From an uncultured Eubacteriales bacterium (GTDB lineage Bacteria; Bacillota; Clostridia; Christensenellales; CAG-138): a DNA stretch of 64,000 bases. The DNA lies in contig CACXMS010000005.1 in NCBI GenBank assembly GCA_902768795.1, positions 18,492 to 82,491 on the forward strand, read 5' to 3'. The position numbers were made by a program, and so were the translations under genes. How positions within the stretch are numbered: position 1 is the first letter of the stretch; every line of letters begins with the position of its first letter. Under the pieces are notes generated by a model. The model did not search any database. It was not told the DNA's origin and saw only the letters and a program-made list of their open reading frames with translations. Below are positions 4,046 to 53,610 of this stretch, piece by piece.

Positions 4046-4119
4046 TGGAGCAGGTAACGGGACTCGAACCCGTGACCTCAGCTTGGAAGGCTAATGTGTT
4101 TCCACTACACTATACCTGC
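4046..4119 (-). tRNA. tRNA-Gly (anticodon UCC)
   Basis: The reverse complement folds as a cloverleaf: acceptor GCAGGTA/TACCTGC, anticodon loop CTTCCAA, GGTTCGAGTCC T-loop, encoded CCA. Confidence 0.9.
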
Positions 4120-4122
4120 CCG

Positions 4123-4206
4123 TGGTGCGGACGAAGAGATTTGAACTCATACGCCTGTGGCACCGGAACCTAAATCCGGCGCGTCTGCCAATTCCGCCAC
4201 GTCCGC
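4123..4206 (-). tRNA. tRNA-Leu (anticodon UAG), long variable arm
   Basis: Acceptor GCGGACG/CGTCCGC, anticodon stem-loop CCGGA-TTTAGGT-TCCGG, long variable arm, encoded CCA. Confidence 0.9.
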
Positions 4207-6899: not shown

Positions 6900-8066
6900 A
6901 TGACGCGCAGAACCACGCGAATCAAAGCCCCGTATCAGGTGGATGTGATCACGCTCGTACTCGTATCGGGCTTGGTTCTGTTCGGTCTTATGACGCTTGT
7001 CAACGTGTTTTGCGACCCGTTTGACGGGAGCGAGGTCACCTTTGCCGATTACTATGCAAAAATGCATCTTGCTTTCCCGACGCGCCAGCTCGGCAACATT
7101 GCGATTTCGCTGCTGCTTGCCGTGCCGCTCGCCGTATTCGATTACGATCGCTATAAGCCGTTTGTCAAAACGGCTTATTTGGTTTGTCTGATTCTCTTGC
7201 TTCTGCTGGTCGTAGCCGGGGAGAACACGCGCGGCGCATTCGGCTGGTACACGATCGGCACGCGCGCTTTTCAGCCGAGCGAGATCACGAAGGTCGTTCT
7301 GATCGTTCTGCTGTCCAAGACCGCGTCCGAGCGGTATGAAAAGCACGGGGCGCTTTCCCGGCCGACGGACGTTCTGGTCTGTGCGCTGTATGTGATCGTG
7401 CCGTTCGTGCTGGTTTTGCTGCAGCGGGACTTCGGCACGGCGATGGTGCTGCTCGTGGTCGCCATTGCGATCCTGTTCTGCGTGCGGCTGCATTGGGCGT
7501 ACCTTGCGGTCGGCGCGGGCGGATTGGCGTCGGCCGCCGTGCTCGGCTGGCAGTTCTTTTTCTCGGAGGTGCAGAAGAACCGCATCCGCGTCTTCCTCGA
7601 TCCGACGCGCGACCTGAAAGGCGACGGCCTGAACGTTCTGCACGCAAAGCAGGTCATCGGCTCCGGAGGACTGTGGGGAAAAGGATATTTTGTGAAGGGT
7701 ACGCTGATTCAGACGGGGTATGTTCCGGTCTGGCACAGCGACTTCATCTTTGCGGGCATCGGGGAAGGGCTTGGCTTTGTCGGCTCCGTCGTGTTGATTC
7801 TGGTCTTTTTCGCACTGTTTTTCCATTGGTTCCGCACTGCGCTTCGCGCGCGTGACACCTATGGGCGCTGCCTTGTCGTCGGCTGCACGACGATGCTCGC
7901 GACGCACGTGTTTGAGAACATCGGCATGTGCATGGGCGCGATGCCGGTCACGGGCATTCCGCTGCCGTTTATCAGCTACGGCGGTTCGAACATGCTCGCG
8001 TCGCTTGCGTGCGTCGGAATCGTGCTGAGCGTCTTTGCGCGTGCGGGCGGGAGGCAGCGGCTATGA
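6900..8066 (+). CDS. rodA: SEDS-family peptidoglycan glycosyltransferase (FtsW/RodA/SpoVE)
   Basis: About 10 TM segments. Conserved C-terminal motif GxxPVTGIPLPFISYGGSNM. SDFIFAGIGEGLGF motif. Confidence 0.85.
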   Translation: MTRRTTRIKAPYQVDVITLVLVSGLVLFGLMTLVNVFCDPFDGSEVTFADYYAKMHLAFPTRQLGNIAISLLLAVPLAVFDYDRYKPFVKTAYLVCLILLLLLVVAGENTRGAFGWYTIGTRAFQPSEITKVVLIVLLSKTASERYEKHGALSRPTDVLVCALYVIVPFVLVLLQRDFGTAMVLLVVAIAILFCVRLHWAYLAVGAGGLASAAVLGWQFFFSEVQKNRIRVFLDPTRDLKGDGLNVLHAKQVIGSGGLWGKGYFVKGTLIQTGYVPVWHSDFIFAGIGEGLGFVGSVVLILVFFALFFHWFRTALRARDTYGRCLVVGCTTMLATHVFENIGMCMGAMPVTGIPLPFISYGGSNMLASLACVGIVLSVFARAGGRQRL

Positions 8067-8905
8067 TCATCCGGCAGATGCAGCCGAAGGACTGCTTTCG
8101 CGCGATGGCGCTGTGGCAGGAGATTTTCCGGGATACGCAGCCGTTTGCGACGTTCTACTTCGCGCACCGGTTCACGCCGACGCTGTCGTTCGGCGTGTTT
8201 GAAGAGGACCGCCTCGTTTCGATGGCGCTCGGCCGCGCGGTGCTGACGGAGCGGCCGGGACTGCGCGCCGTGCTGATTGCCGGCGTCTGTACGCTGCCCG
8301 AATTTCGCGGACAGGGGCTGATGACCGAAACGATGCAGCGGCTGATTGCGAATGCCGCGGCGCGGGGATTCGACCTTGCGCTGCTCTCTCCGGCGATTCC
8401 CGATCTGTACGCGCCGTTCGGATTCCGTCCGCTGTCGTTTGCCGTGGAAGCGACGGAGACGGCGGCAGCGCCCGAGGAATTGCAGCGCGTTTCGGTCGTG
8501 ACCGATTTAAGGGTGCCGTATCTGCTGTATCAGATACAGTCCGTTTCGCATCCGTTTATGCTGCACCGTGAAAAAAAGGATTTTCTGCTTACGCTGCGCG
8601 AATACGCCGCGGACGGCGGCGTGATGCTGCAGACGAAGGACGAGCTCGGCTATCTCTGCTTTCTGCCGAAGGAACGGGAGGTCGAGGTCGTTGAGTGCCT
8701 GGCCGCCTATCCCGAGCAGTATCGGCTGCTGCTGCGCGCCGCCGCGGTCTATTCTCCGTCGCAGAGCGCAACCGCGCTGCTGCCGGCGGATTGCGGCGTG
8801 CCGGGCAAAGTCGTCCGCCCGATCCACGCGCTCGGGCTGAAGCCCTCCGTCCGGCTCGATCAGATCCCTGAGCTGAGGAGAGCGTTTCTGGTGGAACAGT
8901 ATTAA
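8063..8905 (+). CDS. GNAT-family N-acetyltransferase (Eis-like, with C-terminal extension)
   Basis: GNAT acetyl-CoA motif LPEFRGQGLMTETMQRL. The ATGA start overlaps the rodA stop. Confidence 0.65.
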   Translation: MIIRQMQPKDCFRAMALWQEIFRDTQPFATFYFAHRFTPTLSFGVFEEDRLVSMALGRAVLTERPGLRAVLIAGVCTLPEFRGQGLMTETMQRLIANAAARGFDLALLSPAIPDLYAPFGFRPLSFAVEATETAAAPEELQRVSVVTDLRVPYLLYQIQSVSHPFMLHREKKDFLLTLREYAADGGVMLQTKDELGYLCFLPKEREVEVVECLAAYPEQYRLLLRAAAVYSPSQSATALLPADCGVPGKVVRPIHALGLKPSVRLDQIPELRRAFLVEQY

Positions 8906-8923
8906 GGTAAAACAGGCCGCCGT

Positions 8924-9132
8924 AAAAGGGGCCAGACCATTTTCGGCGGATTTTGGAAAAGAATGCTTGTAAGAGGAAAAGACGGAGGAATCCGTCTTTT
9001 CTTTGATCATGCGCCGAAAATTATCCGCGTTTTCACCCTCGCGGTAGCGTCAGTACACGCTTCGGGATGAAAACGCGAATTCTGCCACCCTTCCCGACGG
9101 CCTTTGTCAGCGTGTCAAAAGGTTTTTTGCAC
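8924..9132. repeat. Intergenic repeat element, full copy A (~209 bp)
   Basis: Aligns box-by-box with 46378-46585. Shared boxes: aaaaggggNcagaccNttt, hairpin plus ctttgat, atccgcgttttc...cgtcagta...gaaaaNgcgaattctgccNccctt, gtgNcaaaaggttttt. Confidence 0.75.
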
Positions 9133-9191
9133 CCAGCGCCGTTCGGATTCTCTTTCGGGTTTCCGAACGGCGCAGCTTTGTATTATGTGTT

Positions 9192-30174: not shown

Positions 30175-30678
30175 ATGTATCTGGAAACGGAACGATTGAT
30201 CGTTACGGACTTTACCGAAGACATGGCAATGGACGTACATCTGAACTCGCTGGATGAAGACAACCGGCGGTTCGTGCCGGATGAGGTGTTCGAAACCCTT
30301 GAGGACGCGCAGGAAACGGTGTCCTTTCTGATCGGGCAGTACGGCGGCGAGGAAGGCCCCTATGTGCATCCCGTTCTAAAAAAGAGCGGCGAGAACATCG
30401 GGTATGTCCAGCTGGTGCCGGTTGACGACGGCTGGGAGATCGGATACCACATGGCGAAGCGATACACCGGCAACGGGTATGCGACGGAAGCTGTGCGGGC
30501 GTTCCTTCCGGCGGCGGCAAAGAAAAAGGGCCTCGACCGGATTTGGGGAATCTGCCTTGCGGAGAATAAGGCGTCGGCAAAGGTCATGGAAAAGTGCGGC
30601 TTTGTCAATGTCTTCCGTGGCGTCGGCCCCTATCAGGGCGAGCAGCGCGAGATCATCAAAAACATCTGGTTCGCATAA
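30175..30678 (+). CDS. GNAT-family N-acetyltransferase (RimJ/RimL-like)
   Basis: TERLIV start typical of the subfamily. YTGNGYATEA acetyl-CoA motif. 167 aa. Confidence 0.8.
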   Translation: MYLETERLIVTDFTEDMAMDVHLNSLDEDNRRFVPDEVFETLEDAQETVSFLIGQYGGEEGPYVHPVLKKSGENIGYVQLVPVDDGWEIGYHMAKRYTGNGYATEAVRAFLPAAAKKKGLDRIWGICLAENKASAKVMEKCGFVNVFRGVGPYQGEQREIIKNIWFA

Positions 30679-30730
30679 AGGGGACAGCATATGAAAAAGA
30701 CGGAAAAAATCCGTCTTTTCTTTGATCTTT
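30678..30730. repeat. Short fragment (copy D) of the intergenic repeat family
   Basis: aaaggggacag...gaaaaagacgga-aaaaa-tccgtcttttctttgatc matches box 1 plus the hairpin box of copies A and B. Confidence 0.55.
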
Positions 30731-30770
30731 TGACAAAAATGGTCCGGCGCCTTTGCAGCAGCCCCAGGTA

Positions 30771-44503: not shown

Positions 44504-44553
44504 ACCGATTGCCGATAAAAAGCGGAGCGTAATGCTCCGCTTCCGGCTGCTGC

Positions 44554-44642
44554 AAAAGGGGGCAGACCGTTTTCAGCGGATTACGGAAAGGAATATTTGC
44601 AGGCGGAAAAGACGGAGAACTCCGTCTTTTCTTGGATCATGC
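44554..44642. repeat. Truncated copy B (5' half) of the intergenic repeat family
   Basis: aaaagggggcagaccgttttcagcgg...gaaaagacggag-aac-tccgtcttttcttggatcatgc. Same orientation as copies A and C. Confidence 0.7.
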
Positions 44643-46329: not shown

Positions 46330-46377
46330 ACAGTTTCCTCCCGGACAGGAGCCGCATCGGCTCCTTCAGACTGTCGC

Positions 46378-46585
46378 AAAAGGGGTCAGACCGTTTGCGG
46401 CAAGAAAATTTGATAGAACTGCTGCAGGTTGAAAGGGCCGGAAAGCCCTTTCTTTGATTGAAAACTCGCCGCAAACGATCCGCGTTTTCGCTCCGTCGCA
46501 TACGTCAGTATAGCTCCGTTGCGAAAAAGCGAATTCTGCCTCCCTTATCAACAGTCTGTGCAGCGTGCCAAAAGGTTTTTGGCAC
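46378..46585. repeat. Intergenic repeat element, full copy C (~208 bp)
   Basis: Collinear with copy A. Flanked by the 18-bp direct repeat caggagccgcatcggctc at 46346-46363 and 46590-46607. Confidence 0.75.
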
Positions 46586-46737
46586 GCTGCAGGAGCCGCA
46601 TCGGCTCTTTTTTTCATAGGATAGACAGACGCGCATTTGCTTGCAGAGCGCGGCCTGCGGATAACCTTTCTGAATGCGGCAGGCATCCGATTCAGCGCAT
46701 GATCGGCGAACCCGGTTGGTAGCGGATCCCCGGAACG

Positions 46738-53533: not shown

Positions 53534-53610
53534 GGGGATGTAGCTCAGCAGGTTAGAGCGCTGTGTTCACATCGCAGAGGTCTAGGGTTCGAGCCCCTAC
53601 ATCCCCACCA
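53534..53610 (+). tRNA. tRNA-Val (anticodon CAC)
   Basis: Acceptor GGGGATG/CATCCCC, D-loop AGCTCAGCAGGTTAGAGC, anticodon loop TTCACAT, GGTTCGAGCCC T-loop, encoded CCA. Confidence 0.9.

Follow-up and report, generated by a model that had tools for sequence, protein, structure and literature searches.

The intergenic repeat described here is a MITE, as judged by its size, terminal repeats, target duplications and copy number, and it represents a previously uncatalogued family of non-coding mobile elements of about 200 bases. It is a non-autonomous transposon, most likely moved by an IS1182-family transposase that recognises stem-loops. The fuller account, in which this enzyme acts in trans, the element lands at the hairpins of transcription terminators and its own arms replace the termination that is lost, is probably correct. 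The data show the repeat family itself, its ends, its covarying structure, the target context, the duplications, one empty site and the likeness of the termini to IS1182-family ends; we infer the identity of the transposase, the cruciform mechanism and the terminator activity of the arms. The window, i.e., the whole stretch of 64,000 nucleotides analysed, corresponds to C5:18492-82491 in the genome of an uncultured rumen bacterium, a MAG of 1.9 Mb in 44 contigs with 57% G+C and a completeness of 90%.

The initial annotation had reported four copies or fragments of the repeat in the window. All four exist, lie between genes on the plus strand and can be aligned with each other, and the conserved boxes described for them are real. 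Two of them are full copies (A and C), one is truncated (B) and one is internally deleted (D; Table 1). While the sites were correct, the boundaries were not: copy A had been placed at 8924-9132, and its true 5' end is located 11 nt further upstream, which is 7 nt past the stop codon (8903-8905) of the gene at 8063-8905. Also overlooked were the inverted repeats at the termini, the stem-loop duplications in the flanks and the size of the family. At fragment D, the stop codon (30676-30678) and the last codons of the gene at 30175-30678 lie within the 5' inverted repeat (30663-30689), so the present 3' end of this gene seems to have been supplied by the insertion.

Table 1. Copies of the element, their parts and adjoining hairpins in the window.
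Feature	Position	Strand	Details
Copy A, whole element	8913-9137	+	core 8913-9106, then degenerate terminal palindrome
Copy A, core	8913-9106	+	covariance-model match C5:27403-27596, 187 bits
Copy A, left terminal inverted repeat	8913-8938	+	CAGGCCGCCGTAAAAGGGGCCAGACC
Copy A, right terminal inverted repeat	ends 9106	+	...CCCGACGGCCTTTG
Copy A, arm 1	8939-9021	+	P2 around P3
Copy A, helix P2	8939-8948 / 9012-9021	+	ATTTTCGGCG pairs with CGCCGAAAAT
Copy A, helix P3, terminator-like hairpin	8973-9004	+	core stem GACGG/CCGTC, then TTTTCTTTGAT
Copy A, arm 2	9023-9081	+	P4 (ATCCGCGTTTTCACCC / GGGATGAAAACGCGAAT) around P5
Copy A, hairpin P5	9040-9060	+	inside P4
Copy A, terminal palindrome, degenerate	9108-9137	+	CAGCGTGTCAAAAGGTTTTTTGCAC...
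38-nt hairpin abutting copy A	9136-9173	+	GCGCCGTTCGGA-TTCTCTTTCGGGTT-TCCGAACGGCGC; 83% match to G043:C1:68044-68083, inside L050
Fragment D	about 30663-30767	+	internally deleted; model positions 60-139
Fragment D, content		+	degenerate 5' inverted repeat (CTGGTTCGCATAAAGGGGACAGCA), P3 (30693-30721), part of the next segment
Host hairpin beside copy B	44520-44542	+	AAGCGGAGC-GTAAT-GCTCCGCTT; 3' foot abuts copy B
Copy B	44543-44642	+	5' inverted repeat through P3 (CCGGCTGCTGCAAAAGGGGGCAGACC...CCGTCTTTTCTTGGATCATGC), truncated past P3; model positions 1-98
Copy C, target duplication, left	46346-46363	+	CAGGAGCCGCATCGGCTC, stem-loop
Copy C	46367-46589	+	core 46367-46558, 2-nt spacer, terminal palindrome 46561-46589 (CAGCGTGCCAAAAGGTTTTTGGCACGCTG)
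Copy C, helix P3	46431-46452	+	part of the copy C core
Copy C, target duplication, right	46590-46607 (with the T-run, 46590-46614)	+	followed by a T7 run

The repeat family is real and much larger than the four members first claimed. In a blastn search of the whole genome, dozens of sequences on either strand matched copy A. With an nhmmer profile derived from 14 copies, 82 matches were obtained in the 1.9-Mb genome, about 31 of them near full length, and a covariance model found 68. The genome therefore holds about 70-80 matches, about 30 of which are full length, and this abundance is far beyond chance. Among congeners, the covariance model detected the element in 22 of the 24 sampled species of the genus, with at least 1 to 57 copies each, these counts being lower bounds based on 62 scored candidates per genome. 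With the same model, none of 16 other families of the order was found to carry it. A degenerate pattern scan of a species-representative collection yielded many matches in the goat-reticulum MAG 'Clostridia bacterium RGIG3246', one match in another Clostridia MAG, and three single matches in unrelated phyla, which are taken to be due to chance. No match to copy A was obtained by blastn in the plasmid collection or the phage collection. The repeat had been thought to match no Rfam family, and indeed a search of the window at gathering thresholds returns only three tRNAs, while copy A at permissive thresholds gives noise only (best score 16.8 bits, cut-off 45). Of the three tRNA genes (4049-4206, 53534-53607), two are adjacent and on the minus strand, and the third is on the plus strand.

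The element-bearing genomes found by the pattern scan are all MAGs with contigs that often end in a copy, and their assemblies are frequently broken by the family. Several short contigs of RGIG3246, namely L024 (JAFSLH010000034.1, 5441 nt), L040, L029 and L036, start or end within copies. The copy-bounded small contigs L024 and L040 were considered as composite transposons. They encode ordinary enzymes and no transposase, and are thus products of assembly breaks. As the host genome is itself a MAG with contigs often broken at copies, the repeat could be regarded as an assembly artefact, or alternatively as a conserved regulatory sequence between genes that does not move. Such an explanation is hardly credible, however, and it is refuted by dozens of copies inside long contigs with unique flanks, by the presence of the family in independently assembled genomes of more than 20 species, and by an empty site in a congener, which is described below.

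The element measures about 195-225 nt, and roughly 245-270 nt in a long form. Its exact termini are CAG...CTG, as established from the alignment of full copies and from junction listings. The terminal inverted repeats span about 25 nt and are imperfect. According to subfamily, the sequence of the 5' terminus is CAGACTGTCAATAACGGGCC, CAGGCTGTCGCAAAAGGGG or CAGGCCGCCGTAAAAGGGG. It recurs, inverted and with mismatches, around position 190 (...CCCATTCTTGCCAGTCTG), and where one side differs between subfamilies the other differs with it. An extra terminal palindrome of 29-30 nt, located 2-4 nt beyond the end of the core, is present in about half of the full copies. In intact copies this palindrome is CAGCGTGTCAAAAGG/TTTTTGACACGCTG, which is a further inverted pair of the terminal sequence. 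Since each of its arms is again the terminal motif of about 13 nt (CAGRCTGTCRNWAA), a full element has four such motifs, two as the outer and inner arms of the long-range stem P1 that closes the core, and two in the terminal palindrome.

Copies differ by indels of 1-2 nt and by paired compensatory changes, not in codon-like patterns. In eight copies an additional segment of 60-70 nt (GAGCGCGATAACTTTCGGCGCGCACCCGGCGGGTGAAGAAGCGCCGGAAGTGATTGACCGCTGTT) takes the place of P5 (e.g., C4:109446-109515). This segment, which was not found in the genome outside MITE copies, defines a subfamily of long elements (about 245-270 nt). Internal deletions affect many copies and leave, in the extreme, about 60 nt with both ends. 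Some copies abut head to tail (C12:45403-45748, C16:47819-48030, C12:22409-22602 and C12:31731-31931), with the left inverted repeat of the second, often partial copy lying 0-4 nt past the right inverted repeat of the first. This arrangement suggests repeated insertion at element ends.

Evidence of movement comes from the flanks. Copy C is 97% identical to the copy at C34:3726-3947, and the flanks of the two are unrelated. Direct repeats of 30, 28, 27, 18 and 14+ nt flank five to six copies in the host genome, and perfect flanking repeats of 23, 21, 27 and 23 nt were found in four other species of the genus. In total, duplications of 14-30 nt are present at nine loci in five species, each comprising a complete stem-loop. 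Their length follows that of the hairpin, as hairpins of 17-28 nt are associated with repeats of 18-30 nt. The duplication flanks the core and the terminal palindrome as one unit. A T-run follows one repeat copy at five of the nine loci (copy C, C5:92650, C34:3726, L010 and L012), and the empty site rebuilt for these five loci is an intrinsic-terminator-like hairpin with a T-run. At L012 this rebuilt site is AGGAGACCGCTTTTTATGCGGTCTCCT + GTTTTTTT, while for copy C a terminator scanner flags the hairpin 46591-46609 followed by T7. Long duplications constitute a minority, with about 6 of 31 copies in the host genome and 1 of 20 in the congener G011; at other copies one hairpin is kept beside the element.

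For copy C, an empty site is available in the congener G009, on its contig C11. The two flanks and one copy of the repeat align there in one piece (blast, 78% identity, query 169-475, spanning the junction at 414/415), and no element is present. Only copy C gave such a site; none was recovered in congeners for copy A and C5:92650, where the attempts are uninformative because synteny breaks in all congeners. Of the two readings offered initially, a MITE-like element or a multicopy ncRNA, the first is thus upheld by its terminal inverted repeats, target duplications, the empty site in a congener, nearly identical copies at different loci, many deletion derivatives and IS1182-like termini.

The family is hairpin-rich, lies between genes and reaches a high copy number, properties that it has in common with REP/REPIN-type palindromes. 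These are moved as single-stranded hairpins by RAYT or IS200/IS605-type Y1 (HUH) transposases, and Y1 transposase domains are encoded in 15 of the 28 genomes of the genus. The host genome, however, contains no Y1 transposase (PF01797). Moreover, Y1 transposition (IS200/IS605) produces neither terminal inverted repeats nor target duplications, both of which are present here, and the termini match the ends of the IS1182 family instead. An identity as REP/REPIN with a RAYT is therefore very improbable and was rejected, in agreement with the initial annotation, which had seen no REP-type element in the repeat.

The MITE identity also agrees with a published definition in size, lack of coding capacity, ends and duplications. 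According to Delihas (2011), as cited in PMC11578231, a MITE is smaller than about 300-400 bp, non-coding, bounded by terminal inverted repeats, accompanied by a target-site duplication, and associated with an autonomous partner with matching ends. The present element, at 195-270 nt, is non-coding and shows terminal inverted repeats and, at a minority of copies, a long target-site duplication, which corresponds to the definition on these points. Regarding the autonomous partner, IS1182-family elements in the genus and in gut metagenomes provide 13 of 13 identical bases in the terminal region and hairpin ends; none was found with identical CAG termini, and none in the host genome.

Gene context was derived from an ORF map of the genome scored by codon usage. 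Copies are present in 40 of 229 intergenic regions between convergent genes (17.5%), in 19 of 782 between co-directional genes (2.4%) and in 4 of 202 between divergent genes (2.0%), which amounts to a 7-9 fold enrichment between convergent genes. An overlap of more than 40 nt with a predicted gene was seen for only 5 of the 82 matches. A stop codon often precedes the 5' junction by 1-20 nt. The distance from this junction to the 3' foot of a strong hairpin is 0-4 nt in 26 of 71 cases and exactly 0 nt in 18 of those, compared to 12.7% of random intergenic positions that have a hairpin foot within 6 nt. At several of these hairpin feet, T-rich sequence follows the 3' end of the element, so that the element separates the hairpin of a terminator from its T-tract. 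The junctions and the preference for convergent genes together match the insertion into stem-loops and terminators described for IS1272.

A structure of five helices was written by hand, and its pairs were counted on 25 copies. P1 is the stem formed by the terminal repeats, P2 encloses the variable-stem hairpin P3, and P4 encloses P5. Standard pairs occupy 88% of cells, versus 40-51% when the partner is slid by 1-3 columns. Changes on both sides occur in 35 of the 57 pairs, and none of 500 shuffles reaches the observed pairing values. By helix, changes on both sides were counted in 7 of 10 pairs of P2, 5 of 7 of P3, 9 of 15 of P4 and 4 of 6 of P5. In P4, 94% of cells are paired, as are 87% in P1 with its 19 pairs. 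These counts, with the slid controls and shuffles, bear out the conserved, covarying structure proposed initially. Of the compensatory changes pointed out at that stage, the variable stem of the central hairpin is P3, and GCGTTTTCA/TGAAAACGC versus GCGTTTTCG/CGAAAAAGC is P4. RNAalifold recovered only part of the fold from the raw MAFFT alignment, as the subfamilies differ in the register of P2 and P3, and the hand-built structure was used instead.

The hairpin of the P3 region folds in all 55 copies that cover it, with a mean MFE of about -20 kcal/mol. Judging from its sequence, P3 is shaped like an intrinsic terminator of the plus strand, its core stem being followed by TTTTCTTTGAT in the consensus as in copy A. 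A simple terminator scanner flagged P3 in copy C and not in copy A, where the stem extends into the T-run and leaves CTTTGATC. For the minus strand, inspection of the sequence shows a short T-run after the arm of P4 and P5; in copy A, TAATTTTC comes next on this strand.

These features could also mean that the repeat is mainly a functional RNA module, such as a portable 3'-UTR element, a two-way terminator or a small RNA ending at P3, with helices that would be kept by selection on the transcript. Mobility would then be only the means of spread, and in this respect the proposal can be compatible with a MITE. Such a module is supported by the covariation of P2, P4 and P5, inner arms that a transposase would not need in order to bind the ends. 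It is also supported by the constant presence of the P3-region hairpin, the strong enrichment between convergent genes, and 5' ends that often closely follow a stop codon where there is no second hairpin close by. Overall, 69 G-T pairs were counted against 48 A-C pairs, and in P4 alone 21 against 9. This strand bias in wobble pairs is weak, however, and the copies are not independent; since the G-T excess on the plus strand is only mild, it does not decide which strand folds. Furthermore, no promoter-like site was found in the copies scanned (A and C), the orientation in co-directional intergenic regions is unbiased (10 versus 11), and many copies are truncated or internally deleted. The covariation may instead reflect selection on master copies for mobility. 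A mainly RNA-based function is thus considered rather unlikely, and the MITE moved in trans is the preferred reading.

Transposases of the IS1182 family (PF13751 + PF05598 + PF01609) are encoded in 6 of the 28 genomes of the genus and belong to at least three lineages that are about 36% identical. In the host MAG, which is 90% complete, neither an IS1182-family transposase nor a fragment of one was found with PF13751 or by tblastn with a congener transposase. A motif scan of the host genome for inverted-repeat pairs outside the known copies gave only short deletion derivatives and no autonomous partner. Across the genus, where the MAGs are incomplete, the presence of a transposase does not track MITE copy number: G011 has at least 57 copies and no transposase match, and G023 contains the insertion sequence and no MITE.

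In the IS1182-family elements of the genus, the terminal sequence makes up a hairpin at each end. The contig L055 (1,803 nt) is apparently one whole element, and its two ends consist of GGGCGCGTTGCAAAATAG and the complement of GGGCGTGTCGCAGAATGA. The ends of L050, L052 and L053 read GGAGCCGTTAAGA...TCTTAACGGYTCC, followed by a T-run in L052 and L053, and those of L054 and L051 are palindromes of GGGCGCTGTCTCAAAAC and GGGGCTGTCGCAAAAC. Scanning metagenome contigs with a transposase alignment provided 80 more loci, and in at least 18 of these 80 the MITE model matches a palindrome of 35-50 nt located 130-200 nt past the transposase ORF. The contig L079 (2,013 nt) is one whole element, and L071 and L086 are of the same type; both ends of these three elements are hairpins of GGGGCTGTCGCA. 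The L086 element is centred in an inverted repeat of about 45 nt (L086:560-620 and 2680-2745), with a left flank that is the reverse complement of the right flank, consistent with insertion at the midpoint of a large palindrome.

The reverse complement of the right end of the L079 type, GGGGCTGTCGCAAAA, has 13 consecutive bases in common with the MITE 5' end CAGGCTGTCGCAAAAGGGG. This stretch, GGCTGTCGCAAAA, is present at the right ends of L051, L071, L079 and L086 and agrees in 13 of 13 nt with the 5' end of the MITE copy at C34:3726. Across insertion-sequence loci totalling about 271 kb, the motif GSBTGTCRMAAAA is matched five times, in each case on the minus strand of the right end; by our own estimate, about 0.2 matches would be expected by chance. 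No insertion sequence with exact CAG...CTG termini, or with a likeness beyond about 15 nt, was found in the genus or in gut metagenomes. The four motifs of the MITE (outer-left, inner-left, inner-right, outer-right) are laid out like the pair of hairpin ends in these insertion sequences of gut Clostridia. Just within their left end, IS1182-family elements also contain a hairpin, which precedes a TATAAT-like box and may be the origin of P3.

A family of smaller hairpins, about 38 nt long, has eight members in the host genome, one of which abuts copy A in the window (9136-9173). The others are located at C1:52377, C2:32748, C14:41172, C15:23825, C17:23761, C21:15597 and C39:5373. They possess a conserved loop, TTCTCTTTCGAGTT, and covarying stems (CCGTTAAGA/TCTTAACGG, CCGTTCGGA/TCCGAACGG and others). 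Three of the copies lie beside MITE copies, and several are followed by T-runs. The hairpin resembles the right-end hairpin of a congener IS1182-family element (L050, L052, L053).

In the proposed mechanism, a DDE transposase of the IS1182 family (DUF772 + DDE_Tnp_1_6) would be supplied in trans and move the element. The enzyme would recognise structure, i.e., stem-loops or cruciforms, and not sequence, as described for IS1272, and the element would consequently land at the foot of intrinsic-terminator hairpins behind genes. An attack on both strands, at the two 5' feet of a stem-loop in its extruded form, would leave a full copy of this stem-loop (14-30 bp, according to hairpin size) on each side of the element. 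Otherwise, insertion would take place at the 3' foot, with the element between hairpin and T-tract and no long duplication. Both outcomes occur, as some insertions show a duplication of the whole hairpin and others a single hairpin and no long duplication. The P2-P3 arm, with its T-tract on the plus strand, and the P4-P5 arm, with its T-run on the minus strand, are proposed to restore the termination disturbed by insertion. Copies might be tolerated and accumulate between convergent genes because the arms restore termination for both neighbours.

Further points against this account are that IS1272 itself deletes part of the hairpin and does not duplicate it, and that transposase binding alone does not explain the covariation of the inner arms. 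Taking both parts together, the element may be a self-compensating, portable two-way terminator, in which the lengths of the duplications are set by structure, through cuts at the two 5' feet of a terminator cruciform, and in which two opposed arms compensate for the insertion. This combined proposal is tentative, with a chance somewhat below even.

If the combined proposal holds true, the family would provide the first genomic evidence for the stem-loop-duplicating branch that has only been hypothesised for IS1272, and a portable two-way terminator would have reshaped about 17% of the junctions between convergent genes in the host. Should the arms terminate transcription, the element would be a clear case of a mobile element that brings a replacement for the signal it disrupts, with a bearing on the evolution of the 3' ends of convergent genes. 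The model and the exact boundaries are useful in themselves, as the repeat fills many intergenic regions across a genus of uncultured rumen Clostridia and breaks their MAG assemblies. In addition, the family offers dozens of natural junctions for the study of the poorly understood, structure-directed insertion by IS1182-family transposases, some of which duplicate the whole hairpin.

Among known systems, Correia/NEMIS, ERIC, RUP and BOX elements are structured intergenic MITEs of high copy number that lie between or behind genes, form foldback structures and possibly affect transcript ends. Their terminal inverted repeats differ from those of the present family, as do their duplications, which are TA for Correia and ERIC. 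None of them is known to contain an internal pair of opposed terminator-like arms or to target hairpins.

IS1272 and TnSha1, members of the IS1182 family in staphylococci, insert into terminator hairpins without sequence specificity, their targets being stem-loops, mostly transcription terminators just downstream of genes (PMC4923244, PMC5678879). Their ends can form stem-loops, and the terminal repeats can be duplicated (PMC4923244, PMC5678879). The published model includes one hypothetical branch in which the whole stem-loop is duplicated (PMC5678879). The MITE resembles IS1272/TnSha1 in that its copies stand at hairpin feet and its termini are similar to IS1182-family ends. In contrast to the MITE, IS1272 is autonomous, about 1.9 kb long, and removes part or all of the target hairpin without duplication, whereas the present element is about 200 nt long and non-coding, and in at least nine insertions it has duplicated the whole hairpin. 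Loss of the hairpin without duplication, as known from IS1272, was not encountered, the hairpin being duplicated at nine loci and a single one kept beside the element in other copies.

A MITE with IS1182-like ends is already known in MITEPye1 of Paracoccus yeei (PMC11578231). Like the present element, it is small, non-coding and intergenic, with terminal inverted repeats similar to those of the IS1182 family and a fold consisting of a long stem-loop (PMC11578231). It differs in having 4-bp direct repeats and 1-3 chromosomal copies, in its occurrence in Alphaproteobacteria, and in that no hairpin targeting is reported for it (PMC11578231). The family described here, by comparison, shows structure-dependent duplications of 14-30 bp, about 70-80 matches in the host genome and a spread throughout the genus. 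Being neither REP/REPIN nor an Rfam family, it is a new family of a familiar kind of element.
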